NCBI GenBank assembly: GCA_964291265.2
Contig: OZ219747.1
Coordinates: forward strand, 2,176,001 to 2,240,000
Length of the DNA: 64,000 bases
From: Alphaproteobacteria bacterium
GTDB lineage: Bacteria; Pseudomonadota; Alphaproteobacteria; SP197
Reading direction: 5' to 3'
Of this stretch, positions 42,172 through 59,900 are shown one piece after another (position 1 is the stretch's first letter; each line of letters starts with the position of its first letter). The position numbers were made by a program, and so were the translations under genes. The notes under the pieces were generated by a model. The model had not been told where the DNA came from. It worked only from the letters and a program-made list of their open reading frames with translations, and ran no database searches.

Positions 42172-44705
42172 CGGCCTTTCTCAGAATTGAGGATCTCGTC
42201 GTCGAGGGGCGGCCGCCGTCAGGAGTCTGGGTGGAGACGGTGCATCGTTGCAGCGTGGAGGTGCATCCAGGCGAGGTCGTGGCACTGATCGGCGAATCGG
42301 GGGCCGGCAAGACGACGGTGGCGCTGGCGGCGCTGGGTTATGCGCGGCCGGGAACCCGATTCCGGAACGGCAGGGTCCTTCTCGAGGACCGCGATGTCCT
42401 CGCCATGTCGCTGGCCGAGAAGCGTGACCTGCGCGGCCGCGACATCGCCTACGTTGCACAGAGTGCGCAGGCCTCGCTCAACCCCTCCATTCCCGTGGGC
42501 GAACAGGTTGCCGAAAGTCTGCACCTGCATCGGATCGCCGCCGGTGCCGATGCTGCGCGGCGGATGATCGAGCTGCTCGATCTCCTCGACATTCCACATC
42601 CCGAGATGATTGCGCGGCGCTATCCGCACCAGACGTCGGGTGGTCAGCAGCAGCGCATCATGATGGCCATGGCACTGGCCTGCCGGCCCCGGCTGCTGGT
42701 GCTCGACGAACCGACGACGGCGCTCGACGTGACAACGCAGATCGAGGTGCTCAAGGCGATCAAGTCGGTCACTCGCGACCTCGGTACCGCATCGATCTAC
42801 GTCAGCCATGATCTTTCCGTCGTCGCCCAGGTGGCCGACAGGATACTGGTCATGAACCAGGGGCATGTCGTGGAACAGGGGGACACCTCCCGCATTCTCG
42901 ACGCTGCGAAGGAGGACTACACGCGAACCCTGCTGGGCGCGGTGAAGTCGCCGCCCTCGCCCGGGAGAGGGCTGGTCGACCGTTCCGTGACGCGCGACAG
43001 CGATCCGGCGATCTCCGTCACGCATACCTCGGCCAGCTATGTCCGGCAGGCGCTGTTCGGCAGCATCGAGCGTGAACAGTACGTGCTTCATGACATTGCG
43101 CTCGATGTCTGGCCTCGCGAAGTGCTGGCCGTGGTCGGCGAATCGGGGAGCGGCAAGTCAACCCTTGCCAGGGTCATGGCCGGTCTTCATCCACCCCTTC
43201 CCGGCGCCAGGATCACGCTTGACGGCGATCTCCTTGCCGGCCGGGCGAGGCGCAGGACACGCGATCAGCTTCGTCGCATTCAGATCATTTTCCAGAGCCC
43301 GGACCAGTCACTCAATCCGGAACGGCGCGTCGACGACGCCATCGGCAGGCCCCTCGAACTCTATTTCGGCATGTCGGGTTCCGAGAAGTACGACCGGATT
43401 GCCGATCTCCTCGAGATGGTCGGACTCGACCCCGATGACGCGGGACGCTTTCCCGCCGAGCTGTCGGGGGGTGAGCGCCAGCGTGTCTCCATTGCCAGGG
43501 CCTTTGCCGCCGAGCCTGACGTCATCCTGTGTGACGAAGTTCTCTCCGCCCTCGATACCGTGGTGGCCGCCCGTGTGCTCGAACTGATGAAGGAACTGCG
43601 GGAATCCCAGCAGGTGGCATACGTCTTCATCAGCCACGATCTCTCGACGGTCGCGTCGATCGCCGACCGGGTGGCGGTCATGTATGCCGGCAGGATCGTC
43701 GACGTCGGGTGCACCGACGATGTGTTCGCCCCGCCGCATCATCCCTACACGCAGCTTCTCATCAACTCCGTGCCGGTGCTGCGCCAGGGATGGCTCGAGG
43801 AGGTCATCACAAGCCGCGAGACGGAAGCGGGCATGCGGTGTGCCAGGCGAACTGGCGGAAGGTAGGGGGTGAAAGTCCCCTGGAACGAAGGAGTAACCAA
43901 ACCACGTTTCTCCGCGAGCCGTGCGTCGGTTCCCGCGAGGGGGCAGGCGAAGCGTCGGTAGCGGTACGGATGGGCAGGGCTAATGAGCACCGAAAAAGCT
44001 ATCATCCGGGGTGCCGAGGCTTTCGCATTGGTCGAAGGCAACATCGCAGGCATCGATTTGGTGAGATGTCGGCGAGCCCCGCGGTGTCAGAGAACCCATG
44101 CACGTCCGCACGCCTTCTGTTGGGACCCTGGGAGATCTTCAAACCGTCCCGCCGGTTGTGGCGGGACCGCATGGGGAAGGAGAAAACCGAAGCCTATGAT
44201 GTACGGTTTGAAGAAGTCGGATGAGGCCGTAGTACCTGTGAAGGCGGCGAACAAGGAAGCGTTAGCTTCTGCGGAGTCGCTGGAGGAAAGGGCCTCAACC
44301 AAGGGGAATCCGGGACGCTAAAGCACGCACCGAACGCAGTGTCGGGCAAGCGTGCCACAGGCGGCGGATCGGATACGGGAAGCCGCAGGCTAGTCCAGTG
44401 GTTTGCCGTCCAGTACCCGAGGTAGGAGCCGGATGGATTAACGTCCACGTCCGGATCTGCGCGGGGGGTGCGCAGCAATGCGCATCCCTACCGCGTCTTC
44501 CAATGTCATGCTTCACGACCGCCCGTGTCCCTTTCGCATGCGCTGCCCCCTTGTCATGTCCGGAACCTGCGACAGGGAGCCGGCACCGGCAAGGGAGATG
44601 GCAAACGGGCACATCGTCATGTGCCAGCACGACGAGGCAACCCTCCTCGCGGCGCAGGGCGGGGCCCCGGGGTCGAGGAGGGCAGTCATCTCTCGCGGCA
44701 GGTAG
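42168..44705 (+). CDS. Fused DppD/DppF ABC ATPase interrupted by a group II intron (exons 42168-43837 and 44498-44705; 625 aa spliced)
   Basis: Two Walker A motifs (GESGAGKT, GESGSGKS) and HPYT; exon 2 continues in frame with CPFRMRCP..C..HIVMC. Confidence 0.85.
43838..44497 (+). mobile_element. ORF-less (internally deleted) group II intron
   Basis: 5' GTGTG; closely similar to the ends of 55020-56938; domain V GAGCCGGATGG..CACGTCCGGATC and domain VI retained; 1259 nt shorter than the full copy. Confidence 0.92.
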
Positions 44706-44790
44706 TCGGCGAGCAGTGAAGCGGCGCGATGACGGCTCGGAGACCAGCGCCCGGAACAGCGCATCGTGCCGCTTCGCCGGAAGGTTCCCG
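44650..44790 (-). pseudogene. Rpn/YhgA-like nuclease N-terminal remnant
   Basis: RHDALFRALVSEP and (frameshifted) LLADYLPREMTALLD. Confidence 0.5.
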
Positions 44791-44849
44791 CAGAAGACCC
44801 CCGACGTTCCGACGGACATCCCGCTCACGGGCCGGAAGAGGGGAGGTGG

Positions 44850-45309
44850 TCGACGTGGCGGCACCCTACGCCGGACAGCACCAGGCCGGCAATCGCGGCC
44901 CCGCTACCGGGGATGGGTTGTCGGGTCCAGCCCAGACGCAACGTTCTCGACCCACCACGGAGATATCGACGGCCTTGCCGGGCTGAGCGGAAGCGCACAA
45001 CCTGCACGAACGTTTCGTGAAACACGGGAATTCCGTCCTGCGCTTCATGGGAGACTCCGACGTCAGTGTCACCAACCATGCCGGAGCACGGAAGATCAGG
45101 ATGGTAAGGGTCAAGATCAAGGTGTCTGGATGTTTCCGCATCATGCGCCGCGCAAAAGCATGGCGCCGGGACTCAAGCTACCTCACCCCCATGGCGGCAC
45201 TCGGCTACAATCATCACGTCGCCATCCACATCGCTCTCGACGGAAAGGCCTCAGACATGATCACGTTGCATCACGACCCATCAGAACCCAACAAGGCGTG
45301 AGTAGATAC
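44850..45309 (+). pseudogene. IS66-family transposase C-terminal remnant with right end
   Basis: SVLRFMGDSDVSVTNHAGARKIRMVRVKIKVSGCFR; terminal GTGAGTAGATAC resembles IS66 ends. Confidence 0.7.
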
Positions 45310-45322
45310 CGGAGAACCACAT

Positions 45323-47221
45323 ATGCTGCGCTTCTGGACGACCTTCCTCATGCTTCTCTTCGCTCCGCTCGCGTCGGTCGGCGCCGAGGCGCCGAACCCG
45401 AAATGCGCCGGGATGAGTGAGGGCGCCGAATGCTGGATTGAACTCGCCGAGCGGCCCGGCTGCTATGTTTTCAATCACTACTACGAACCCTCCGAGACGG
45501 TGACCTGGTTCGGCGAATGCCAGGACGGTCTCGCCGTTGGGCCGGGAACCTTGGGGCGGGAGTCCGCCGGCAGTTCCAGCGAGGCCACGGGGACGTTGGT
45601 GCGGGGCAAGCGGCACGATCACTGGGTCTTTCGCTACGCTGACGGATCCGTCGAGGCAGGCCCTTTTGTCGACGGCAAGCGGCACGGCCATTGGGGCGCT
45701 CGCACAGCTGATGGATCCGTCCTTGAAGGCCCATGGGTCGAGGGCAAGCGGCATGGCCACTGGGTCGCTCGCACAGCTGATGGATCCGTCCTTGAGGGCC
45801 CGTATGTCGAGGACAAGCAGACCGGCCATTGGGTCTATCGCTTGGATGGCGGCTATGTCGGGCAAGGCCCATATGTGGACGGCAAGGAGCACGGCCACTG
45901 GGTCTTGCGCGGGCCTAACGGACACGTCAAGGAAGGCCCCTATGTCGAAGGCAAGCAGACCGGCCACTGGGTCATTCGCCACGCTGATGGCACCGTCGAG
46001 GAAGGCCCCTTTGTCGACGGCGAACGGCACGGCGAATGGATCGCTCGCGTGGCTGACGGCACTGTCGAGGTAGGCCCTTATGTCGAGGGCAAGCAGACCG
46101 GCCACTGGATCATTCGCCGGAATGACGGCATCGTCGATGAAGGACCTCTTGTCGACGGCAAGCGGCAAGGCCACTGGGTTTTTCGTGCGGCTGACGGACA
46201 CGTCGGGGAAGGCCCTTTTGTCGACGGCAAGAAGCACGGCCACTGGGTCTTTCGCTACGCTGGCGAATTCGTCGAGGAAGGCCCTTTTGTCAACGACAAG
46301 CGGCACGGCCGCTGGGTCCTTCGCGCGGCTGACGGGTCCGTCGGGGAAGGCCTTTATGTCGACGACAAGATGACCGGCCATTGGGTGATTCGCCACGCTG
46401 ACGGCATCGTTGAGGAAGGCTCCTATGTCGACGGCAAGAAGACCGGCCACTGGGTCATTCGCCTGAATGACAGCGCCGTCGTGCAAGGCCCTTATGTGGA
46501 CGGCAAGCAGACCGGTCACTGGGTCATTCGCCGGAATGACGGCGCCGTCGAGGAAGGCCTCCTTGTGGACGGTATGCGGCACGACCTCTGGATCTTGCGC
46601 TACGCTGACGGATCCGTCCATGAGGGCCCTTATGTCGACGGCAGGAAGACCGACCACTGGGTGATTCGCCACGCTGACGGCATCGTCGAAGAAGGTCCTT
46701 ATGTCGATGGCAAGCAGCACGGCAAATGGGTCATTCGCCACGCTGACGGATCCGTCGAGGAAGGTCCTTATGTGGACGGAGAGCGACACGACCACTGGGT
46801 CGTTCGCTGGCCTGACGGATCCCTCCATGAAGGCCCATATGTGAACGGTAAGAAGACAGGCCACTGGGTCATTCGCTGGCCTGACGGAGACATCGGGGAA
46901 GGCCCTTATGTCGACGGCAAGCGGCACGGTCACTGGGTCTTTCGCTACACTGACGGGTCCGTCCATGAAGGCCCTTATGTGGATGGAGAGCGACACGACC
47001 ACTGGGTCGTTCGCGCGGTTGACGGATCCGTCCATGAAGGCCCTTATGTCGACGGGAAAAAGACTGGCTACTGGGTCGTTCGTGCGGCTGACGGATCCAT
47101 CGACCAAGGCCCCTATGTCGACGGCGAGCGGCACGGCCAATGGATCATTCGCTACGCTGACGGCACTACGGTCCACGATCGTTATGTTGAGGGCTTGCTT
47201 GTGGATGAGCCTTTGGATTGA
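45323..47221 (+). CDS. Secreted MORN-type repeat protein, long paralog (23 repeats of 23 aa)
   Basis: Signal peptide, 4-Cys cap, GGAG RBS; consensus YVDGKxxGHWVxRxADGxVxEGP. Confidence 0.88.
   Translation: MLRFWTTFLMLLFAPLASVGAEAPNPKCAGMSEGAECWIELAERPGCYVFNHYYEPSETVTWFGECQDGLAVGPGTLGRESAGSSSEATGTLVRGKRHDHWVFRYADGSVEAGPFVDGKRHGHWGARTADGSVLEGPWVEGKRHGHWVARTADGSVLEGPYVEDKQTGHWVYRLDGGYVGQGPYVDGKEHGHWVLRGPNGHVKEGPYVEGKQTGHWVIRHADGTVEEGPFVDGERHGEWIARVADGTVEVGPYVEGKQTGHWIIRRNDGIVDEGPLVDGKRQGHWVFRAADGHVGEGPFVDGKKHGHWVFRYAGEFVEEGPFVNDKRHGRWVLRAADGSVGEGLYVDDKMTGHWVIRHADGIVEEGSYVDGKKTGHWVIRLNDSAVVQGPYVDGKQTGHWVIRRNDGAVEEGLLVDGMRHDLWILRYADGSVHEGPYVDGRKTDHWVIRHADGIVEEGPYVDGKQHGKWVIRHADGSVEEGPYVDGERHDHWVVRWPDGSLHEGPYVNGKKTGHWVIRWPDGDIGEGPYVDGKRHGHWVFRYTDGSVHEGPYVDGERHDHWVVRAVDGSVHEGPYVDGKKTGYWVVRAADGSIDQGPYVDGERHGQWIIRYADGTTVHDRYVEGLLVDEPLD
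45596..47182 (+). repeat. Coding tandem array, 23 x 69 bp
   Basis: Strict 69-nt period with no indels; 23 Trp-anchored units counted. Confidence 0.92.
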
Positions 47222-47269: not shown

Positions 47270-47941
47270 TTGCGGCACGATCTTTGGAGGCTGGTTTGAA
47301 CGAAGGCCGGGGCGCGTGCCTGGAGGCGTTCTGTGAAGCGCTCTCCGGTATTCGCTGTCGAGGCGTTCAGCGGCTCGGCCTCCGGCGAAATCGGCGGCGA
47401 AGGCGACGAGGGTGCGCTTTGGCGCCCAGGCTTCGGCCCATTTCGCAAGGCACCGGGTAACGCCGGCGGTTGGCAGGATCGCGGTTCCGGGACGGCGACA
47501 TTCCTCGATGCCCCAGGAAGAGACGGTGTCGATTGCGCGTCAGTCCTCGGGCCGGTCCATCGACAGCCAGAGACTTCCGTCGGCGCGTCAGCACCTAGTG
47601 TTCAAGAAGACCGTCGAGGCGAAGCCTGTTGTCAGGGCTGTGGAAGCTGCGGTCGAGCTGCACCAGCGCAGGTCGGGAAAGCGCGCCTGGGTCTTCTCGA
47701 TCATTGGCTGAGCAGAGTCCATGTCGCTGTCTTGCCACATGATCTCGGGGTGCAGGATGAACCCGTGGTGGTCCTCAAGCACGCATACCGGCACCCCGAA
47801 TTCCACCGGCGTTCCCGCCTTGCCCTTCGAGTTCCACCGTGTGCAACTCTCGAAGATCGAGAACATCTTCTCGTCACGCGGGATCGTCTCGCTCTGGAGA
47901 AGGCGGCGCGCCACCCGGTCGATCTGACGCCTCGCATGGCC
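47270..47941 (-). pseudogene. ISNCY/IS5-like transposase remnant
   Basis: RRLLQSETIPRDEKMFSIFE..SKGKAGTPVEFGVPVCVLED. Confidence 0.7.
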
Positions 47942-48199
47942 CAGACAGAACTCAGGCGGTCACCAACGTACAGGACGGCGCACCACACAAGGCCAGGTCC
48001 CGAAGCGTAGCCTGCGCACGCTCCACAAGGTCCACAAGACCACGGCAGGTCATGTCGGCGGCGATTTAGAACGGCGGGATATTGGCGGAGAACCGCTCTT
48101 TTGGGCGCTGATCGTGTGAGTGGGTGACCACGACAGGAGAACGTGCGGCATTGGACGAAGGTCCGCCCGGTCTTTGTTTTCTGCCTATTGTTGGATCCC

Positions 48200-48560
48200 A
48201 TTGGTCTTGCATTGACGTTGACGATGTCGTTCCGGTCGGCGTTTTCTGGCGTTCGGCGTTTGTGGAACGTGATGTGGGAGGGGAGCTTCAGGCTTTTGCG
48301 CGTGGTTTCGTTCTGGCGTTCTCCGTCCTCGTCGTGGTTCGTCGGGCGGGACGATCTCGAGGCTGGAGAGCTGACGGTTTCTGTTGCGCTGGGCGAAGAG
48401 GCTGCGTGCGTTGCGGTTGCGGCGGCGCAGGGTGCGGCAGGCGTCGAGTGTTTTCGGGCGGATGCTGCGACCTGTGAGCCAGTCCGGCGGCGGATCGGGC
48501 GTTGCTGCGGCTCAGCGGCTGCGGCAGTCTCGTGATGTGGTGTCGTTTGGACGGCCCGGG
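48200..48560 (-). pseudogene. Decayed, internally deleted copy of the toprim gene
   Basis: Aligns by eye to ~49340-49470 and ~49718-49925. Confidence 0.7.
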
Positions 48561-49142
48561 GGTTTCCCGGGGAGGCTGAGAGGCGCGTCGGGGTGAGACG
48601 TTCTCATTCCTGGATGGTAACGCGTGACCGCGTTCAAGGGTCTTGCGAGATTACGTGTCCCTTCCGTAGCCGCGTGGCGGTTCGATGTCCTCGAGAGCCT
48701 CGATGTCGGCATCGGCGACGCTCTGCAGGCGTTCTCCGTAAGGCGTGTCACGGAGGGTTTCGGGGATGCTGTCGAGGCGGTCACGCCATTCGTCCTGCAG
48801 GGTGCGGCAGGCGTCGAGTGTTTTCGGGCGGATGCTGCGACCTGTAAGCCAGTCCGGCCAGCGGCTGCGGCAGTCTCGTGATGCGGTGTCGTTTGGACGG
48901 CCCGGGGGTTTCCCGGGGAGGCTGAGAAGCGCGTCGGGGTGAGACGTTCTCATTCCTGGATGGTAACGCGTGACCGCGTTCAAGGGTCTTGCGGGATCAC
49001 GTATCCCTTCCGTAGCCGCGTGGCGGTTCGATGTCCTCGAGGGCCTCGATGTCGGCATCGGCGACGCTCTGCAGGCGTTCTCCGTAAGGCGTGTCACGGA
49101 GGCTTTCGGGGATGCTGTCGAGGCGGTCACGCCATTCGTCCT
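48427..49142. repeat. Tandem direct repeat (370 bp + 346 bp)
   Basis: 48427-48796 nearly identical to 48797-49142 apart from a 24-bp indel; GCAGGG at the junctions. Confidence 0.88.
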
Positions 49143-49287
49143 GCAGGGCGCGCAGTTCGGCCACGGCGTCGTTCCAGCGTTGCGGTCGCGAGCGCCGGTC
49201 ACGGTGCTTTGGGGTGTGGACGGGAGGGATGCCGGCCTTGCGCCGTTCCCGGTATCGCCGCTGCTTTTCGGCGGGCGTGAGGGGCAT
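48997..49287 (-). CDS. Small hypothetical protein
   Basis: MPLTPAEKQRRYRERR..PPRGYGRDT; AGGAG RBS upstream. Confidence 0.7.
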   Translation of the reverse strand: MPLTPAEKQRRYRERRKAGIPPVHTPKHRDRRSRPQRWNDAVAELRALQDEWRDRLDSIPESLRDTPYGERLQSVADADIEALEDIEPPRGYGRDT

Positions 49288-49313
49288 GAGTGGTCTCCTT
49301 GTGACGGACGTGG

Positions 49314-50207
49314 TCATGATCTCGCTTGTGGTTCTTTGGTCCTGGCGTTGACGACGTCGTTCCAGTCGGCGTTTTCCGGCGGTCTGCGTCTGTGGAACGA
49401 GACGTGGGAGGGGAGCTTCATCTTTTTGCGCAGGGTTTCGGCCTGTCGCTCTCCGGCCTCGTCGTGGTCCTGGGCGAGGACGATGGTCCTGACGTTGGGC
49501 AGGCTGCTTGCGGCGAGGCTGATCTGTTCGTGCTGTCTTCGCGAGGGTGCCCCGGCGGTGGAGAGGAAGGCGTGGCTGGGGGGACATTGGTCGATCTGGG
49601 CCAGGCTGAGGGCGTCGACGGCGCTTTCGGTGATGACGAGGGCCTCGAGGTCCGCGGCGGTTCCGGCGCGGACGGCGAACAGGCTTCGGGTTCCACCGGT
49701 GGCGAAGCGTTTCGGTCCGTCGGGGGGACCGATCTCGAAGCCGGTGAGCTTTCGCTTCCTGTTGCGATGGGCGAAGAGGACGCGTCCGTTGTGGTCGCGG
49801 CGGACCAGGGGGCGGCAGGTGTCGAGGGTCTCCGGGAGGATGCCGCGCCCGGTGAGCCAGTCCGGGGCCGCATCGGGCGTTGCCGCGGCCCAGAGGCTGC
49901 GGAAGTCGCGTGGCGCGGCGTCGGGTGCTGCGAAGCGGGTGCAGATGTCGGCGAAGGCCAGTCCGCGGTTGAGCATGAAGTCGATGACGGTTCCGTTGTC
50001 TTCATCGTTCTGGGTGTTGAAGTAGACCCAGTGTCCGTTGTTGAGGCACTTCGTGACGAGCTTCGGCAGGCCGGGTGCGCACAGGACGGGGTTGGCGCGT
50101 GTCGAGGCCTGTTCGTCGCGGACGTATCCCCAGTCGGCGGCGATGCGTTCGAACGGCATGCGCTTGACGGCGTCGAAGTCGACGCGGCGGGGTTTATCGG
50201 GTTTCAC
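49314..50207 (-). CDS. Toprim-domain / primase-like protein (DUF3991 + toprim architecture)
   Basis: NGTVIDF, WLTGRGI, ITESAVDALS, AQDHDEAG, DWND; start overlaps the istB end. Confidence 0.78.
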   Translation of the reverse strand: MKPDKPRRVDFDAVKRMPFERIAADWGYVRDEQASTRANPVLCAPGLPKLVTKCLNNGHWVYFNTQNDEDNGTVIDFMLNRGLAFADICTRFAAPDAAPRDFRSLWAAATPDAAPDWLTGRGILPETLDTCRPLVRRDHNGRVLFAHRNRKRKLTGFEIGPPDGPKRFATGGTRSLFAVRAGTAADLEALVITESAVDALSLAQIDQCPPSHAFLSTAGAPSRRQHEQISLAASSLPNVRTIVLAQDHDEAGERQAETLRKKMKLPSHVSFHRRRPPENADWNDVVNARTKEPQARS

Positions 50208-50895
50208 GCCTGAGCCGCCAGGAGTCGCTGTCGATGGAGATGAGGGTTGCGTCGTGCATGAGCCGGTCGACGGTGCCGGCGATGCCGGAGGCGCTGGGGA
50301 AGACGCGGTCCCACTGGGCGAAGGCGAGGCTTGTTGTGACCATGGTCGAGCGGCGCTGATAGCGCCGCGAGACGATGGCGTAGAGGATGTCGGCATGGTG
50401 GCTTTCGAGGGTCACGTAGCCGATTTCGTCGAGGACGAGCAGGCGGGGCCTGGCGAGGATCGCGAGGCGGCGGCGCAGCTCGCTGCGCGAGACGGTCTCG
50501 GCGAGTGCCTCGAGCAGTTCCGGCGCCTTCTCGAAGCGGACGGTGTGGCCGTGCAGCAGGGCCTGGTGCGCCACGTTGGCGGCGATCATGGTCTTTCCGG
50601 TGCCCTGCCCGCCGACGAGCACGGCGTTGTCCGCACGGTCGACGAAGCCGAGGCCGAGGAGCGCTTCGACATGAGCCCGGCTGATGTCGCGCGGCCATGT
50701 CCAGTCGAAGTCCGCCAGGGGCTTGAAGGCGGGCAGCCGCGCCGCGGCGCGGCGGCGCTCGTGGCTGCGGGCCCTGCGGGCCTGTTCCTCGCCGCTGACC
50801 ACCTCCTCGATCCATGCGGTCCCGGCGACCTCGTCCCAGCGTTCGACGAGCCCGTGGAGGCCGAGCGCCCGGGCACGCTCCCTGAGCTCGCTCAT
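50194..50895 (-). CDS. istB: IS21 helper ATPase IstB
   Basis: LADFDWTW, GGQGTGKT, LLVLDEIGY, VDRLMHDA, SWR. Confidence 0.92.
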   Translation of the reverse strand: MSELRERARALGLHGLVERWDEVAGTAWIEEVVSGEEQARRARSHERRRAAARLPAFKPLADFDWTWPRDISRAHVEALLGLGFVDRADNAVLVGGQGTGKTMIAANVAHQALLHGHTVRFEKAPELLEALAETVSRSELRRRLAILARPRLLVLDEIGYVTLESHHADILYAIVSRRYQRRSTMVTTSLAFAQWDRVFPSASGIAGTVDRLMHDATLISIDSDSWRLRRETR

Positions 50896-52385
50896 GTCTT
50901 GTTCCTGGCGCTGGCTTCGGGCCTGTCGTAGGCGTCGAGAGCGGTCCCCCGCGGCGTCGTGCCACGGCCGCCGCGGCCGTCGTCGGCGATGCTGAGGGGC
51001 GGCAGGCCCTGCTCCCGGCGGCGCTCCTCGATGATGACGCGCACGGTTTCGGGGTGGCACGAGCCGCGCTCCAGCGCCGTGGCGACAGCCCGGTCGAGAG
51101 CGTCGGCGCCGTGCGCGTTGAGAAGCGTCTCCAGCATCCGGGCGCAGGAGGCCACGTTGCGCCCGTTGGTCCCGGCGCGCGCCAGCATCTCCTCGGCCCG
51201 CGGCACGGTGCGCAGGACCCGGTCGCGGACGCTCATGGAGCGGGCCCGCCGCTTGCCCGCGGCGATCGCCCTGGCATGCTCCGGATCGGTGACGGCCTGC
51301 TTCCTGTCGTAGGAGCGTCGGTGGCGCGCGACCTCGTCGGCGCCGTCGAGGATGCGAACCTCGTCGCGGTCGGCGACCAGCGTCAGCAGGGCCTTGGAGA
51401 AGCTACCCGGAACGCTGTAGTCGTTGGTGTCGAAGCGGGCGTGGCAGGTCTTGTCGATGCGCACCGGGCGGACCTCGTGATGCGGGAAGGGGTCGACGGG
51501 AAGGACGATCAGGTGCTCCCTCTCCCGGGCGAAGGCGTCCCGCACCAGGAGACTGTCGTCGTCCGGCCAGGGCCGCTCCGCGGCGGCGCCGAAGCACCAC
51601 TCCCGAACTGCGGCGTTGAGCTCGCCGAGCGGGACCGTGATGTCGCGCCCGGCGAAGAACCCGGTGCGCGCGAAGCGCACACGGCGTTCCACGCGGCCCT
51701 TCTCCTGCGGGCTCCTGGGCCAGGCGGCGCTCGGTTCGAAGGCATAGTGGGCCGCGAGGCCGAGCAGCATCGGATGATAGGTGACCGCCTTGCCGCGGCG
51801 CGTCACCACGGCACTCTTCAGGTTGTCGTACAGAAGCCTCCGCGGCACACCCCCGAATGCCGCGAAAGCCTCGACATGGCCTTGCAGGAAGCTGGCCATC
51901 CGCGCGTCGTGGAACAGGCTCAGGACAGTCTGGCGCGAGTAGCTGAGGGTGACGAGAAGCCCCATGAGCCTGCGCTCCGCCCGGCCGATGCGGACCTTCC
52001 CGAACTCGGCCCAGTCAACCTGCGCCTGCTCGCCCGGAAGGAAGCTCAGCCGCAGCGACGGCTCGGGCCTCTTCACCGGCCTCAGCCCGAGGCGGCGCAG
52101 GTCGTGACGGAAGTGATCCTCGCCGCCGCGGTAGCCCAGAGCCACGACCTGTCGCCAGAGCGTGCTGGCCGGAAGGTCCGGCGACGCCTCAAGACGCTCC
52201 CCGAGGAAGGCAACGAAGGGGTCGATGAGCTTGGCCCGCGGCCGCCGCTCCTGCCCCGACGCCTTGAGCGCCCGCGTCACCGTGCCGTGGTGCACGCCGA
52301 GATGCCGGGCAATCGTCCCCACAGCCCAGCCCTCGGCCCGCGACAGCCGCACGATCGTCGCCCGCGTGTCCTCGTCGATCGCCAT
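50892..52385 (-). CDS. istA: IS21 transposase IstA
   Basis: N-terminal HTH; PGEQAQVDW, LYDNLKSAV, EKGRVER, FDTNDYSVP. Confidence 0.92.
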   Translation of the reverse strand: MAIDEDTRATIVRLSRAEGWAVGTIARHLGVHHGTVTRALKASGQERRPRAKLIDPFVAFLGERLEASPDLPASTLWRQVVALGYRGGEDHFRHDLRRLGLRPVKRPEPSLRLSFLPGEQAQVDWAEFGKVRIGRAERRLMGLLVTLSYSRQTVLSLFHDARMASFLQGHVEAFAAFGGVPRRLLYDNLKSAVVTRRGKAVTYHPMLLGLAAHYAFEPSAAWPRSPQEKGRVERRVRFARTGFFAGRDITVPLGELNAAVREWCFGAAAERPWPDDDSLLVRDAFAREREHLIVLPVDPFPHHEVRPVRIDKTCHARFDTNDYSVPGSFSKALLTLVADRDEVRILDGADEVARHRRSYDRKQAVTDPEHARAIAAGKRRARSMSVRDRVLRTVPRAEEMLARAGTNGRNVASCARMLETLLNAHGADALDRAVATALERGSCHPETVRVIIEERRREQGLPPLSIADDGRGGRGTTPRGTALDAYDRPEASARNKT

Positions 52386-52417
52386 GAACTCCCTCCCTTT
52401 GGTTCCTCAACGCCGCA

Positions 52418-52894
52418 TCACGGGTCCCTCAGCACCACATGCGTCACGACCCGTCCGCATCTGGCGCACCGAAGCGGCGATTCGCGCCGCTCTCGCGCCT
52501 TCACAACCGCAGGTAGGGAGGTCGGCAGCAGTCGGGAAGGGTGGTCCGTAACGATTTCTTCAGAACCGGCGTCTCCAGACACCGCCGGAACGTCGCCAAG
52601 CAGCACCACAGCAGACGTCTGCGTGTCCATGATCTCGGCAACCATCGCCGCCCTGGCCTTCAACGCACGCGCCTCCTCCGCCTTGCGGAGCCGGTAACGC
52701 CGCTGGCGGTGACGGCCCGTCTCACGGCCCTTCAGCGTGCTCTGGTAGCGACGACGCGACGCGCGGCGCCGCTCGATCCGGGACCGCTCCCTGCACTCCT
52801 TGGAGCAATACACATGCCCCCGGTCACACGACCGGCAGAGAACAACCTGCCGCTGACACCGCCTGCAGTTGAACAGTCGTCCTGTCGTGCACAC
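52418..52894 (-). CDS. Cys-rich basic (zinc-finger-like) protein upstream of istA; start uncertain
   Basis: CRRC..CRSCDRGHVYCSKEC, Arg-rich helix, C-terminal CARC. Confidence 0.65.
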   Translation of the reverse strand: MCTTGRLFNCRRCQRQVVLCRSCDRGHVYCSKECRERSRIERRRASRRRYQSTLKGRETGRHRQRRYRLRKAEEARALKARAAMVAEIMDTQTSAVVLLGDVPAVSGDAGSEEIVTDHPSRLLPTSLPAVVKARERRESPLRCARCGRVVTHVVLRDP

Positions 52895-53212
52895 CGTCCG
52901 TCTCGAGAGCGGGGGTGGACCCGGACGCAAAATGGCTCGACAATACACGGGAGTTCGGTCCCCCGTGACCGGCTCGTCCGGGTGCTGCGCCGGGGGGCGT
53001 CACAACTCCGCCCGGCATCGCATCGCTCTTTCTCTTGATGCCGATCTAGCATCCACCCGGGGCGGCGGCAAAGACGCCGCCCCGGGACCGGACAACGCGA
53101 CCCGCCCACAGGGAAGACAGACGATCCCGCGAGTGCCTCGGAACCGGAACCCTCCCGGCAACCGTCACCAAGACCGAAGCAGAGGTCGACGGAACCCGAA
53201 CCGGACCAAAAC

Positions 53213-53304
53213 GACAATAGGAAAAGACGGCGGCGCTCGGGGAGACAACCAGCCGAACACTCAAACCACGACAACAGGACGTGACAATAGGACCTGACAA
53301 CAGG
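53213..53304 (+). repeat. GACAAYAGG direct repeats, three at 13-bp spacing
   Basis: Copies at 53213, 53270, 53283 and 53296. Confidence 0.7.
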
Positions 53305-53899
53305 GAAGAAACACGACCCTGACAAAGCGCGGCAAATCGCCGAAATCCCGCCGTTCTATGCAGCCATCAACAGGTCAGGATGTCTGAACTTCTGGTCTTG
53401 GATTTTCGCGACGGTAACGGTGCATGCACAGGCAGTGAGCGGAACCACAGGGCTTTTCTTTTGTCGTCCCGGCGCTCGGCGCACGCAGGATTCTGGGGGT
53501 GGACATCCCGTTTTCGCCGTGGCAGTGTGCCGGCATGACGACGCTTGTGACCCCAGATTCCCCTATCGACCTTCACGAGGTGACGGTGCGCCCGACCCGT
53601 GGCGCACGTGAGCACCGGCTCTGGGATCGTCTGGTCAAGGAGCATCACTACCTGCGGTTTCACGGCATCATCGGCAAGGGCCTGCGCCATGTCGCCCTGC
53701 ACGGCGAGACCTGGGTGGCGCTGGTCGGCTGGCAGCCGGGCTCGTTCAAGCTTGCTGCACGCGACCGCTGGATCGGCTGGACTGCGGAGCAGCAGTTCCG
53801 GCGCCTGCATCTGATCGCGAACAATTCCCGGTTCGTCATTCTTGGCCCGAGGTAAGCGTTCGGCCACGCGGTGATTGTTGGTGATATTCACCGGTTGAG

Positions 53900-54195
53900 G
53901 ATGCGTTTGGGAGGCGCACCACGTGGCGGTTCGCTGTTGGGTCCGAAGACGATGGGTCCGGGTCGGGTTGCTCGTCGTTGGGGTGGCGGCAGGGTGATGA
54001 GGCCGTCGCGGTGCATGGCCAGAAAGGCGACATTCGCCATCATGTTCTTGAGGCCCCGTCGGGCTTGTATCAGCCGGTCTCGCGGCAGAAGGCGCGGGCG
54101 ATGGCCGCACGGGTGGGGTGCTGGGTGATCAGGGAGCGCAACAGCGCCATCTCGTGCGCGGTGAAGTCACGGCCGTCGTAACGGCACTCGATCAC
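53900..54195 (-). pseudogene. N-terminal fragment of a DUF4338-type protein inside IS66
   Basis: RYDGRDFTAHE..ARAFCRETG*YKPDG / LKNMMANVAFLAMHRDGLITLPPP; stop and frameshift; GTGA overlap with the tnpC stop. Confidence 0.6.
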
Positions 54196-55019
54196 CCCGG
54201 TTCCATGAGGTCCCGTCGGCGCTCCGGGGTCATCGACCATGGCAGCCACGGGTCGAGGTCATCCGGCGGCTTGCCGCCGTTCTGCGCGCAGGCCTCAAGC
54301 CACTCATGAAGCCAGCGCCGAACATTGATGTTGTTCATGGCAAGGGTGCCGATGACCGAGTACATGATGGCGGTGAAGGCGGCGCCTTCCTCGCTGTCGG
54401 AGCCGAAGCTCAGCTTTCTCGCGGTCACCGCACCCCGGAGGGTTCTCTCGGCCAGGTTGTTGTCCATGGGCACCTGGGGATGGTCGACAAAGACGCACAG
54501 TCCCTCGCGGTGACGGATCAGGGAACGCAAGGGCTTCGCTTCGCGTGCACCCTCGGGCAAGGCGTCGAGTTCCTCCTGAGCCTGCCTGAACAGCGCCTCG
54601 ACAGCCGCACGAAGGTCCTTCTGCAGGGCATTGAACCTCGCTGACTGACGCTTGCGTGCGGGATCGTAGTGCTTCAGCCGTTGCCCATTCAGTGTGTAGA
54701 TCAGCGCGATCCTGTCGAGCCACTTGTCGCACCACTCTTCCAGCCCCTCTTGGCCTGCCGCAGCCTCGATCACATCGCGCCTGGAGTGCGCCCAGCAAAG
54801 GCAGAGGATCACCTTGCCATCAAGCTCACGCTCCAGTTTCCTGTAGACCACGTAGCGGTCGCAGACAAGGAAGACGGTGCCTTCGGTGGAGGCGAACAGC
54901 ACCATGGCCACCCGGGTGCTGCGTGACGGGTCGATAAGGAAGAAGACGGAGTCGGCGCTGACCGCGGTCCACAGCCAGGCCTTCTGCGAGCGCCCCGAGG
55001 CCTTGAGGGACTGGATGCG

Positions 55020-56938
55020 GTGTGCCAGGCGAACTGGCGGAAGGTAGGGGGTGAAAGTCCCCTGAAACGAAGGAGTAACCAAACCACGTTTCTCCGCGAG
55101 CCGTGCGTCGGTTCCCGCGAGGGGGCAGGCGAAGCGTCGGTAGCGGTACGGATGGGCAGGGCTAATGAGCACCGAAAAGTCCGTTGTTCGGGGTGCCGAG
55201 GCTTTCGCATCGGTCGAAGGCAACATCGCAGGCATCGATTTGGTGAGATGTCGGCGAGCCCCGCGGTGTCGGAGAACCCATGCACGTCCGCACGCCTTCT
55301 GTTGGGACCCTGGGAGGTCTTCGAACTATCCCGCCTGTCGTGGCGGGACCGTGTAGGGAAAGGAGAAAGCCGAAGCCTATGAGGAACGGTTTGAAGAAGT
55401 CGGATGGGGCCGTAAGACCGGTGAAGGCGGCGAACAAGGGAGCGTCAGCTTCTGCGGAGTCGCTGGAGGAAAGGGCCTCAACCAAGGGGAATCCGGGACG
55501 CCAAAGCACGCACCGAACGCAGTGTCGGGCAAGTGTGCCACAGGCGGCGGACCGGATACGGGAAGCTGCAGAGAGGAACCCGAAGGAGCGTCTCACTGCA
55601 CTCTTCCATCACATTACGCCGGACGCGCTCCGGGCGGCCTACTTCGGTTTGAAGAAGGAAGCCTCGGCAGGTGTCGACGGCGTGACGTGGGCGGCGTATG
55701 GCGAGGGTCTGGACGAGCGCTTGCTTGATCTGCACTCGCGCCTGCATCGTGGGGGAGCGTACCGGGCGCCGCCGGTTCGGCGGGTTGAGATACCCAAGCC
55801 GGACGGCGGGACACGACCGCTCGGGATTGCCGCACTGGAGGACAAGATCGTCCAGAAGGCGGTTGTGGATGTGATCCTGACACCGATTTATGAGGTGGAG
55901 TTCCTTGGCTTCAGCTACGGGTTCCGACCGGGCCGAGGGGCGCATGACGCTCTCGACGCCCTGGCGTTCGGGATCGAGCGGCGCAAGGTCAACTGGATAG
56001 TCGACGCGGACATTCAGGGGTACTTCGACACAATCCCGAGGGATTGGTTGATCAAGTTCCTGGAGCATCGCATTGGCGACAGGCGGGTGATCCGTCTGAT
56101 CCGCAAGTGGCTGAACGCTGGCGTCATGACCGACGGATCATGGAGCGACACCGGTGCGGGCACGCCTCAGGGCGCCATTGTCAGCCCCTGCCTGGCGAAC
56201 GTGTTTCTGCACTACGTGCTCGATCTGTGGTTTCACAAGGCATGGCGTCCGAAGGTTCCGAACGGTAAAGCGATCATTGTCCGCTACGCGGACGATATTG
56301 TGGTCGGGTTCCAGCATAAGCGGGATGCGGAGACATACCTTCGCGACGTTCGGGAGAGGCTGGACCGCTTTGGTCTCACCCTTCACCCGGACAAGACCCG
56401 TCTCGTTGAGTTTGGACGGTTTGCCAAGGCGAACCGGCGATCTCGCGGGGCGGGCAGGCCGGAGACGTTCGACTTCCTGGGCTTCACGCACTTCTGCACG
56501 GAGACCCGGAGAGGACGCTTCAGGCTTGGTCGCAAGCCGGTCGCAAAACGGGTCGCAAGGACCCTGGCGCGCATCGAGGAGGTGCTTCGCAATCGACGGC
56601 ATCACGACATATGGGAGGTCGGCATGTGGCTTGGGCGAGTTGTCAATGGCTGGTCCAACTACTTCGCCGTTCCGGGGTCGACCCGATGGCTGCGCACGTT
56701 CCGCCAAAGGCTGCAACGCCTATGGCTGCGAGCGATCCGCCGCCGCTCCCAGCGCCACTGCTTTGACTGGAAGCGATTGGAGCGCATGACCGAGCTTCTT
56801 TGGCCGCGCGTCTCCATCCGCCACCCATGGCCGGACCAGCGGTTTACCGTCAAGCACCCGAGGTAGGAGCCGGATGGATTAACGTCCATGTCCGGATCTG
56901 TGCGGGGGGTGCGCAGCAATGCGCATCCCTACCGCGAC
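55020..56938 (+). mobile_element. Full-length bacterial group II intron (1919 nt)
   Basis: 5' GTGTG, 3' CCCTACCGCGAC; domains V/VI at ~56866-56938; no TSD; flanks rejoin tnpC exactly. Confidence 0.95.
55535..56866 (+). CDS. ltrA: Group II intron reverse transcriptase/maturase, no endonuclease domain (start uncertain)
   Basis: GVDG, IPKPDGGTRPLGI, SYGFRPGR, DADIQGYFD, GTPQG, RYADD, FDFLGF, GWSNYF. Confidence 0.95.
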   Translation: MPQAADRIREAAERNPKERLTALFHHITPDALRAAYFGLKKEASAGVDGVTWAAYGEGLDERLLDLHSRLHRGGAYRAPPVRRVEIPKPDGGTRPLGIAALEDKIVQKAVVDVILTPIYEVEFLGFSYGFRPGRGAHDALDALAFGIERRKVNWIVDADIQGYFDTIPRDWLIKFLEHRIGDRRVIRLIRKWLNAGVMTDGSWSDTGAGTPQGAIVSPCLANVFLHYVLDLWFHKAWRPKVPNGKAIIVRYADDIVVGFQHKRDAETYLRDVRERLDRFGLTLHPDKTRLVEFGRFAKANRRSRGAGRPETFDFLGFTHFCTETRRGRFRLGRKPVAKRVARTLARIEEVLRNRRHHDIWEVGMWLGRVVNGWSNYFAVPGSTRWLRTFRQRLQRLWLRAIRRRSQRHCFDWKRLERMTELLWPRVSIRHPWPDQRFTVKHPR

Positions 56939-59900
56939 CCAGCTGGTCTCGTCGCCGTGGCGCACCGTCAGCCGGTTCTGATGATCGAGGATGGCCTGAG
57001 CGAGAGGCGCGAACATCGGCGTCATCTTCTTCATGCCGCCAGCGATCGTTCCCGGCGCCATCGGCAGTCCCTGGTCTTCCAGCCATCGCGAGACCCGGCG
57101 CAGGGGACGCAAGCAGGCGAAGCGCTCATAGAGCACGCATTCCCAGACACTGATGCCGAAGGGGGTATTCGCAAGCAAGCGCAAAGGTGGCGGCGCGATG
57201 ATCTCCGCAGGCGCCGACGAACACTGACAACCACGGCGCCAACGCCCACGTTCAATCCGCCGGATATGAGCCTTGACATGGACCTCCATGATCGAGGTCT
57301 CGTGGCTGCCGTTGGCCACATAGGGCTCGCCGCAACACGGGCACGTGCGCTGCGATGCCGGTGGATCATGGCGTTCGTGCTTCTCCTTGAGCTTCGGACG
57401 CGGAGTGCGCCCGTGGCCGCTCTTGCCGGGTTGCTGACCCCGCTTGTTCCCGGTGCCTTCCTTCTTCTTCCGTTTCTCGCTCTTCGACCCGAAGCGCGCC
57501 GTCGCGTGCTTGGCACGCGTCCCGCGGAGATTCCTCAGCTCGCTCGCCTGTTCAGCGTTCTTGAGCTTCAGAGCGTCCCTTTCCTGCTCCAGCGCCTCCG
57601 CTCGGGCCTGTCCACGCTTCACCTCCCGGCGAGCCTCCTTGAGCTGATCACGAGTGCGGTCGAGATGAAACTTGAATGTGCCCGCACGGGCACGGGCAGA
57701 ATTCTTCGCACGGCGCAGGTCACGCATACGCGCTTCCGCCGCATCCGCACGAACCCGCTCCGCCTCATAGAGCGCACGCCAGTCAGGCGCCTCGCATGAC
57801 AAGGCCACTGACGCCCGACATAGGCCGTCACCACCTCCCGTCAGCTGCTGTGTCGCTCCGCGCGTCTCGGCAAAAGTCTTCATGGCCTCGACCATAATCG
57901 AGACCAAACGAGTTTACCAGCTCTTTCTCAGACGATAGTCAGCAAGACCCAAACCAACCAAAATCAGCCATCACCGAACGGCCGAACGCTTACGGCCCGA
58001 GAGGGGTGCCGAACCTGGCGTCCCGCGTGCTCGGCCTGAGCCTTCGGCGGCTGTCCGCCGACATCGAGGCCACGCACGGATACCCAGTGTTCCTCGCGGA
58101 GACGTTCGTCGACATCAAGCGCTTCGCCGGAACCTGCTATCGCGCGGCGAACTGGCGCTCGCTGGGATTGACGCGCGGCTTCGGTCGCAAGCCCGGCGGC
58201 ACCGCACGCTTCCGTCACCACGGCCAGCCCAAGGAGATCTTCATGTACGAACTGACCGACGGCGCCGCCGAGGCGCTGAGCCGGGACGCGATCCCGGAGA
58301 GCTGGAACGCGGAGCAGCACGACCAAGCCGGACCGATGGCCGCGTCCGGGCTGCGCAGTCTGTTCGCCTGCCTGGGCGAGGTGCCCGAGTGCCGCAAGCC
58401 CCGGGGCAAGCGCTATCCGCTGAGAACCATTCTCGCGATCGCCGTCGCAGCCCGGCTCGCCGGCTACCGCGGCGTGAGCGCATTCGCTCAGTTCGCCGCC
58501 CTGCTCACCCAGGAACAGCTGGCGGCGGTGGGTGCGTTCTACAGCCCGTCGAAGAAGCGCTACACGGCGCCCACGTCCACAACCTTCCACAGCATCCTCG
58601 CCAACCTGCCGCCCGAGACCCTGGACCACGCCATCGGCCTGTGGACGGCCCAGCAGGCCGGTGCAGACACACCGCTCGCCATGGACGGCAAGGACATCCG
58701 CGGCGCCTCCAGGCAGACCAAAAACGGGCGGCGGATGATGGTCGCAGCGGTCGAGCACGGAACCGGCATGGTCCTCGGCCAGGTCGAGGTCGACGCGAAG
58801 AGCAACGAGATCCCCGCCGTGCGGGACCTCGCCAGCAGCATCGACGTCACGGGCCGCATCGTCACCCTGGACGCGATGCACGCTCAGCACGAGACCGCGC
58901 AACGGCTTCTCGAGCGCCGCGCCGACTATGTCATCACGGCGATCAAGGATAACCAGGAGACCATGCTCGACGACCTCAAGGCCATCGACTTCAAGGGCGC
59001 GGCTTCGTTCGAGACACTCGACAAGGGGCACGGACGCATCGAGCGCCGCCGCTGTGCCGTGGTCGACATCTCCGGCGCCGAGTGGGACGGCTACGCCGCT
59101 CTCCACGGTCGCCACCAAGCCATCCGCATCGAGCGCGAACGCGAGATCTGCAAGACCAAAGAACGCAGTGTCGAGACCACCTGGTGCCTCACCTCGCTCG
59201 CTCCCGAACGCGCCGGACCCGAGATGCTTCTGGCCCTCGTGCGCGACCACTGGGTCATCGAAAATCGACTCCACTACGTACGCGACTTCACCTACGACGA
59301 GGACCGCTGCAGGGTCCATGTGCGCCATCTGCCACGCAACCTCTCCTGCCTGACAAACGCCGCCATCGCCATCGTGCGCTGCGGCGGACATTTCGACTAT
59401 ATGCCCGAAGCCAACCGGCACTACGCCGCCCGCGCCCAGGACGCACTCGACGCTATCCTCATCCCGCCCGGCGGATGAACCTTCGCTCCTGACCCCGCGC
59501 CACAAGCCGGGAACGCGCCGCCTGACGGCGCAACAGGACAGCTCTGTTCGCACACTCGAAAAAACGTGCCTAGTGAGCCCTGATGCACCAGCAGTGCCCA
59601 CTGAAACCAGCCCACAGCGAACCCGGGCGCCTCAACCATGCCGGTCCCTGTCACATCAACAATCCACAGGACTGAAAAAAGAATGGTCCTGAGCGGAACC
59701 ACACAGATCTTGATCTTTGCCATCAACATCAACCCCTGTGGTCGGACATCCATGCGTTGTACGCCATGCCGCACCATCGGCCTCAGGCAAAGACGTGCCG
59801 GACCTGCGCACATTCCGCCTGCCTTGGGATCGGGCGCCTGCAACTATGCGATCCGCCGTCCACACCACATGGCAGCCTGGGATACCGGAGCCGCCAGTTC

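Follow-up and report, generated by a model that had tools for sequence, protein, structure and literature searches.

The window analysed here is a stretch of 64,000 nucleotides from an alphaproteobacterial genome (assembly GCA_964291265.2, contig OZ219747.1, positions 2,176,001 to 2,240,000 of the forward strand). At 48053-53372 it carries a 5,320-bp transposon of the IS21 family, which begins with TGT (48053), ends with ACA (53372), and is flanked on both sides by GGTCA. Besides istA and istB, the element holds a gene for a primase-like protein with a toprim domain, and the place of this gene in the element is the subject of this report. Every open reading frame (ORF) of the element lies on the minus strand, in the order Cys-rich ORF, istA, istB, toprim gene, small ORF, and degraded tail. 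The features are as follows.

48048..48052, no strand: left target-site duplication GGTCA, repeated at 53373-53377
48053..48102, minus: downstream terminal inverted repeat, starting TGT on the plus strand; 34 of the 50 outermost bases pair with the other end, and the limit is common to 30 copies
48213..48996, minus: degraded tail, made up of a partial repeat of the small ORF and of fragments of a second toprim gene, the latter being 81-83% identical to 49343-49484 and 49714-49923
48997..49287, minus: small ORF of 96 aa, no known family, a roaming passenger and probably dispensable
49314..50207, minus: toprim gene, DUF3991/Toprim_2 protein of 297 aa, recognised by its predicted fold and by E194, D198, D247, D249, and DWND at 281-284; residues 1-95 form a predicted zinc-binding-domain-like part without zinc ligands, and residues 97-290 a predicted primase RNA-polymerase domain
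50194..50895, minus: istB, AAA+ helper ATPase of 233 aa, Walker A at 95 and Walker B at 152
50892..52385, minus: istA, IS21 DDE transposase of 497 aa, with D124, D187, and E233
52418..52894, minus: Cys-rich, zinc-finger-like ORF of 158 aa, common to the whole IS21 subgroup with or without the toprim gene
53323..53372, minus: upstream terminal inverted repeat, terminating in ACA on the plus strand
53373..53377, no strand: right target-site duplication GGTCA, pairing with 48048-48052

IstA matched NF033546 at 222 bits (cut-off 160), and IstB matched PF01695 at 171 bits (cut-off 24, E 3.6e-50) and NF038214 at 191 bits, slightly below the cut-off of 200. The toprim protein matched Toprim_2 at E 3.5e-13 and DUF3991 at E 5.6e-4, the latter below the cut-off, and the family scans placed the Cys-rich ORF in no family above cut-off, only in unnamed clusters. 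The istB start overlaps the istA stop (ATGA), and the GTG start of the toprim gene lies inside the end of istB with an overlap of 14 nt. The imperfect terminal inverted repeats contain a 35-nt arm pair that is 77% complementary; judged by eye, each end has only a partial second sub-repeat of the L1/L2 and R1/R2 type. A sigma-70 promoter scan of the element gave 0 sites, a scan against a defence-gene library gave only a weak DnaG-like domain match, and no transfer gene, relaxase, or coupling protein was found between the element ends. The first-pass annotation of this DNA had described inverted repeats and a target-site duplication enclosing a co-directional unit of zinc-finger ORF, istA, istB, toprim gene, and small ORF, with the toprim start overlapping the istB end; the ends, the duplication, the ORFs, and the overlap were all found again, and the degraded tail comes in addition to what that annotation listed. 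With its DDE-type IstA, AAA+ IstB, coupled istA-istB, imperfect TG…CA repeats, mostly 5-bp duplications, and lack of a target motif, the element resembles the IS21 family (IS21 and IS5376) and is a variant of it, not a new kind of system. It differs from the family in its length (5.3 kb), its upstream Cys-rich ORF, and a selected primase-fold gene coupled to istB, having four intact ORFs and a dispensable fifth compared with the canonical two.

The host genome (4.83 Mb in two contigs) contains 30 full-length copies, which are 98-100% identical and have the same limits, besides interrupted and partial copies. Target-site duplications were found for 26 of the 30 full copies (5 bp in 21, 6 bp in four, and 7 bp in one) and for none of the other four. 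As 30 copies share their end bases and 26 of them have their own 5-7 bp duplication, the limits of the element are not due to chance. Both istA and istB are intact in all 30 copies and the toprim gene in 29, and the element spreads as one unit, with a total of about 197 kb in the 4.8-Mb genome. The degraded tail is among the most variable regions across the copies, and the small ORF has a stop at codon 12 in three of them. Of the four full copies without a duplication, at least two have the same flanks as other copies, a sign that copies may have recombined with each other. The insertion in the window lies at the edge of a degraded transposase-like repeat (window 47500-48052) with relatives of 74-83% identity elsewhere in the genome, and no exact empty site for it was found.

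No target motif was detected across 21 insertion sites. When orientation was compared with the replichores defined by GC skew, 14 of the 29 copies on contig C2 were co-oriented and 15 were head-on, showing no bias. Seventeen of the 30 copies lie in repeated DNA and five of these in the element itself, which is no excess of self-targeting given that sequence repeated three or more times makes up 19% of the genome and the element 21% of the repeats. In one sequencing run, reads covered the element at a depth of about 2,000 and the left flank at 44. Read depth does not measure copy number; the ratio is close to the 36-39 assembled copies of any part of the element and is no measure of amplified circles.

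The toprim gene is a regular companion of istB in this lineage. A scan with one genome per species gave 179 relatives, of which the best 76 loci were examined. Among these, toprim genes at least 50% identical and with the N-terminus kept had istB directly upstream at 61 of 61 loci in 18 genomes, mostly titled Paracoccaceae or Alphaproteobacteria metagenome-assembled genomes, with 25 of the loci coming from a single genome. No istB was found directly upstream of five N-terminally truncated remnants and ten distant homologues (33-37% identical). Sister elements in eight genomes are 4.0-4.7 kb long, with TGT…ACA ends and duplications of 5-6 bp. Starting from IstA in 61 relatives, the toprim gene was found behind eight of ten non-self IstA loci (truncated at one); the remaining two were a broken element and a locus with a 47% identical IstA and no toprim gene. 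The same search of 151 other genomes found the gene behind five of five full-length close IstA genes, with a contig-end fragment as a sixth match; the searched genome sets overlap, and kin are not independent. The istA-istB-toprim synteny that the first-pass annotation had proposed to look for is thus present in other genomes. The same annotation had held that its view would fall if close homologues usually lacked the gene and its loss had no effect; all intact close relatives examined carry it, and five distant ones, described below, do not.

For 13 elements, the median pairwise ratio of nonsynonymous to synonymous substitution rates (dN/dS) was 0.43 for the toprim gene, 0.42 for istA, and 0.36 for istB (77 of 78 pairs each), where a GC content at third codon positions of 0.85-0.89 compresses dS, so that the absolute values are rough and the comparison between genes counts more. 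The two stops counted in this set are natural ends, and the third codon positions of the toprim gene are the most diverged. The toprim tree shared six of ten splits with istA and seven of ten with istB, compared with eight of ten between istA and istB; the conflicting splits have bootstrap values of 64 or less, and each toprim split with a value of at least 78 was matched in the istA or istB tree. By these comparisons, the toprim gene co-descends with istA and istB under equal constraint, and is therefore not recent or decaying cargo. A neutral gene, captured once and carried without function, would agree with the junk that the element does carry (the degraded tail and the roaming small ORF) and with the distant relatives that manage without a toprim gene. 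It would not account for an open frame and an invariant catalytic motif across elements whose IstA proteins are 49-87% identical, for a dN/dS equal to that of istA together with the divergence concentrated at third codon positions, or for a second, independent capture that is likewise under selection (see below). This explanation appears largely refuted by the sequence comparisons, and we regard it as very improbable.

The nearest homologues outside transposons are 30-40% identical and lie in regions resembling integrative and conjugative elements (ICEs) and on conjugative or mobilisable plasmids, some being fused to MobV relaxases. The ICE-like regions are on soil Myxococcota-type contigs, where a topoisomerase, a transglycosylase-like gene, and a tyrosine integrase were recognised from sequence as neighbours. 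In metagenomes, the best 80 of 265 loci all held distant toprim genes (30-40%), with no istA, istB, or ExeA neighbour. The Toprim_2 primases of mobile elements, which have a DaN- signature, have been tied to transferred single-stranded DNA (PMC5512222). The window protein shares the fold, the acidic motif, and the DWND (DaN-) signature with the DUF3991/Toprim_2 primases of plasmids and ICEs (those with a TraC1/SogL-type role and the MobV-toprim fusions); it differs in that its element has no system resembling a type IV secretion system for transfer, that it has no basic residue where T7 has R124, and that D198 is often replaced by N in its clade. An origin of the gene in plasmids or ICEs followed by retention is supported by these nearest kin, and capture and service to the element are compatible. 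Hence, the first-pass alternative of captured plasmid cargo holds for the probable source of the gene, and fails as recent or decaying cargo against the dN/dS values, the co-descent, and the 29 intact copies. As a separate observation in the ICE-like contexts, at L200:1483-2364 and 40 similar metagenome loci, a second gene immediately follows the toprim gene; it opens with a part resembling the N-terminal domain of the toprim protein and has no catalytic part.

The same hosts carry three further transposon designs that contain toprim genes of a second clade, and each of these designs combines a DDE transposase with an AAA+ helper. The designs are listed with a representative locus each.

Design B, L049:2647-6652 (genome G005), 4.0 kb, ends TGTTG…CAACA, 15 copies: Cys-rich ORF, rve/Mu-C transposase, ExeA-like AAA_22 ATPase, toprim gene
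Design C, L253:1401-4824 (genome G061), 3.4 kb, five copies, 6-7 bp duplications: unrelated IS21 element (IstA 31% identical) with the toprim gene head-to-head with istB
Design D, G000:C2:460796-465955 (L317) and five more places, 5,160 bp: Cys-rich ORF, rve transposase, AAA_22, AAA_25, toprim gene

Design B is also present in G002, G009, G010, G013, G071, G111, G112, and G114, and L319 is a variant of it with an AAA_25 gene between the ATPase and toprim genes. The toprim gene of design C, which shows clear terminal sub-repeats, starts about 110 bp inside the far end and points inward; this design also occurs in G010, G070, and G071. Design D is present in the host genome of the window as four intact and two interrupted copies, with ends TAAGCG…CGCTCA and 5-bp duplications, and also in G010, G061, G112, and G114. 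Both interrupted copies are broken by the window element. In two designs, the gene directly before the toprim gene encodes an AAA_25 protein, which we take to be a RepA-like helicase; that of design D had no plasmid match at E 1e-20. A single clade for all transposon-borne toprim genes was rejected (approximately unbiased test, p 1e-10, quick tree of 56 rows). The second clade had dN/dS values of 0.28-0.57 in eight of eight pairs, and 17 of its 20 wide loci had a DDE or AAA+ neighbour, the other three being remnants or contig ends. In the host, the IS66, ISAs1-type, and IS110-type elements showed no toprim gene. Among named transposons, Tn6049 of Cupriavidus metallidurans CH34 comes closest to designs B and D by description, being compact, present in many copies, and equipped with TGT ends and a GspA/ExeA-like ATPase; the matched passages on Tn6049 mention no primase (PMC2864759, PMC4739549). 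The window element differs from Tn6049 in having IstB in place of an ExeA-like ATPase, whereas designs B and D have AAA_22 ATPases.

Near-identical designs were found across several host families, and the horizontal spread of these designs is real. This spread, the ICE-like, conjugative, and mobilisable contexts of the nearest homologues with their occasional MobV fusions, and the link of such primases to transferred single-stranded DNA (PMC5512222) would fit a toprim gene that is selected for a reason other than transposition, either establishment after conjugative transfer, as for the plasmid homologues, or a benefit to the host. The element itself lacks genes for a relaxase, a coupling protein, or transfer; a benefit to the host would not need 30 intact copies; and the toprim genes of the second clade keep company with DDE or AAA+ genes at 17 of 20 wide loci and were not seen in the three other element types of the host named above. 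We consider selection of this kind unlikely. A further observation on distribution comes from L146, a 2.7-kb contig titled Acidimicrobiales, which holds an istA-istB-toprim set of this clade (44-53% identical) and represents either a cross-phylum transfer or a binning error.

The structure model of the toprim protein (mean predicted local distance difference test score of 92) matched a T7 gp4 primase fragment best (1nui; Z 15.7, root-mean-square deviation 3.2 over 177 residues), followed by Aquifex DnaG (Z 13.5) and Twinkle, and a profile search also retrieved the T7-type primase (E 7e-9). When the N-terminal 95 residues were folded alone, the top three matches were primase zinc-binding domains with middling scores (Z 6.2, 5.6, and 4.6), the best of which had a deviation of 3.9 over 84 residues. 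The N-terminal domain had no Pfam, PDB-sequence, or Foldseek match, and an Atlas lead to PF01807 stood at 0.90 only. In the profile alignment, E194, D198, D247, and D249 correspond to T7 E157, D161, D207, and D209; all 28 clade members have E194, D247, D249, D281, N283, and R121. The protein thus carries the acidic motif of a primase on a predicted primase fold. It is like T7 gp4, DnaG, and Twinkle in its RNA-polymerase domain fold and zinc-binding-domain-like N-terminus; it differs from them by the lack of zinc ligands and of a helicase or helicase-binding domain, at 18-20% identity.

We propose as the most likely reading, with a probability of about 0.42, that the role of the toprim protein is to prime the strand displaced during replicative or copy-out transposition. 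In this mechanism, IstA would make a branched or figure-eight intermediate, one strand would be displaced by the host polymerase, and the toprim protein of the element would lay a primer on the displaced strand, so that the copy could become double-stranded without waiting for PriA-DnaB-DnaG. Priming would raise the yield of transposition and would not be essential. As described in the literature, IstA nicks and joins the ends; copy-out/paste-in transposition of IS21 was still termed "proposed" in a structural paper of 2024 (PMC11208146); IstB is a target-capture ATPase, and IS21 is an element of two ORFs (PMC10122671); figure-eight intermediates are converted by host replication (PMC7780238); and phage Mu relies on the PriA primosome of the host (PMC5778457). 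The probability above is based on the consideration that either route exposes an element-length single strand that needs priming, and that primases of this kind prime transferred DNA. That the element primes its own replicative or copy-out step had been raised in the first pass; the toprim gene being fixed and selected, and the predicted primase fold with its acidic motif, are consistent with it, and the distant IS21 relatives without the gene weaken it. The kinship of IstB to DnaA/DnaC was noted there; nothing was found in support of IstB as a replication initiator, and the passages cited above describe it as a target-capture ATPase. Phage Mu and Tn7 are comparable to the element in that a DDE transposase works together with an AAA+ helper and one step involves fork-like DNA (passages of PMC5778457 and PMC8649781), and Mu differs in using the host primosome. 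The matched places of PMC8649781 list no primase among Tn7-like core genes.

Several residues weigh against priming by the toprim protein. Its N-terminal domain has no conserved zinc ligands, H59 being the only conserved candidate, and D198, although present in the window protein and 15 of the 28 clade members, is N in 13 of 28. By sequence alignment, R121 corresponds to T7 R84 and R/K166 to T7 K128, and T7 K122 and R124 are replaced by E158 and G160. In all 27 ICE-type or distant homologues and all 8 plasmid homologues examined, the residue aligned with T7 R124 is K or R; a basic residue stands there in none of the 28 clade members and none of the 24 members of the second transposon clade. 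These positions have known roles in the T7 primase, and the residues of the basic ridge are important for priming. Passages of PMC7367122 likewise state that the basic ridge residues of DnaG matter. R/K166 is present in 27 of 28 and R167 in 28 of 28 clade members, and the distant group lacks both; these two could compensate for the lost basic residue. The toprim protein may accordingly be either an altered but working primase or a derivative that no longer synthesises primers.

The latter would be a primase-derived factor that serves transposition by binding or processing single-stranded or branched DNA. It might, for example, shield the displaced strand, pass the intermediate on to the host replisome, or assist in target capture. 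The loss of the same basic residue in both transposon clades, the frequent D198N change, and the missing zinc ligands argue for such a factor, as does the pairing of the second clade with unrelated transposase-ATPase sets, even head-to-head with istB, which fits action on DNA and not on one partner. E194, D247, D249, and DWND are, however, invariant in the clade, and R/K166 and R167 may replace the lost residue. Fork-targeting of the TnsE kind, a variant of this idea, gives one orientation relative to the direction of replication; the orientation bias that sets Tn7 TnsE apart is absent in the window element (14 versus 15), and there is no target motif. We hold a non-synthesising role to be less likely than not, though not far behind priming and better placed than selection for transfer or host benefit.

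Priming by the toprim protein also has to be reconciled with IS21 elements that do without it, and these count against it together with the points that follow. Four plasmid-borne relatives (IstA 42-48% identical), taken from 58 plasmid records that hold a related IstA, were examined together with one genomic relative (47%), and all five lack the toprim gene. The IstA subgroup is large, with 4,721 proteins at E<=1e-60 among 7,998 scored, compared with about 50 close toprim clusters among 83 matches. IS21-type transposition therefore does not need the toprim protein in general, and the gene is, by these comparisons, a derived addition in one clade. The wider subgroup (for example, on Aromatoleum aromaticum EbN1 plasmid 1, Mesorhizobium huakuii p_1, Paraburkholderia PGU19 p3, and Methylotuvimicrobium MEALZ_p) shares the Cys-rich ORF, an istA of 42-48% and an istB of 43-50% identity, and a further ORF coupled to the istB stop, but an ORF of 63-73 aa occupies the slot after istB in place of the toprim gene. 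The host genome has both priA and dnaG, so the toprim gene fills no obvious gap in the host. No activity, intermediate, or expression of the element was observed, and the compression of dS mentioned above blurs the strength of selection. The circular intermediate and its replication, which the first pass had entertained, gained no ground: an end-to-end junction, as expected from a circle or tandem, was found neither in the assembly nor in the contigs of three public runs from one study, which lose rare molecules and are not evidence of absence.

No description of an IS21 element with a toprim or primase gene was found in the open-access literature, with subscription journals, ISfinder, and supplements outside the search, and the matched passages of PMC13055273 and PMC4073490 mention DUF3991 only in the context of conjugation. 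The present analysis contributes tests of selection and of co-descent, the finding of two independent captures, the parallel loss of a residue, and the design with AAA_25. A wider proposal, which we put forward tentatively and with the odds somewhat against it, is that bacterial DDE transposons with AAA+ helpers domesticated a conjugative primase at least twice, in some designs jointly with a RepA-like AAA_25 protein, and thereby gained a minimal module that primes the replicative step. If so, these insertion sequences would carry a primosome of their own in place of the borrowed PriA-DnaB-DnaG, and a comparison of IS21 subgroups with and without the toprim gene would offer a direct test of the replication step in IS21 transposition. 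The replication of the strand-transfer product in IS21-type and copy-out elements is poorly resolved, and the known models lean on host factors; a selected primase-fold gene in one IS21 lineage and its independent capture by three other designs in the same hosts point to that step. Should the toprim protein have lost its priming activity, the disappearance of the same basic residue in two captures would still mark out a new accessory factor of transposition. Such elements are major shapers of genomes.

The small ORF of 96 aa is missing from most sister elements, and its relatives occur in other settings. A 78% identical homologue lies in the same genome (G000:C2:3033246-3033536) after an IS110-like transposase gene recognised by eye, a 71% identical one follows an unrelated istB in G005 (L052:10409-10696), and another relative sits between istB and the toprim gene in design C of G010.

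Other features were noted in the window outside the element. To its left, intron-like remnants were found near window 43983-44860, and window 45323-47221 (plus) encodes a 632-aa protein with a likely signal peptide and an array of 23-aa repeats (69-nt period), whose MORN_2 match was weak and below the cut-off. Beyond the right end, window 53499-53855 is a DruA/DUF4338-like fragment that opens a repeated element. A group II intron reverse transcriptase (55280-56866, plus) separates the two pieces (54192-55235 and 56879-57907, minus) of an IS66 transposase at window 54192-57907. Next, at window 58006-59478, comes a DDE_Tnp_1 transposase whose N-terminus weakly resembles DruA.

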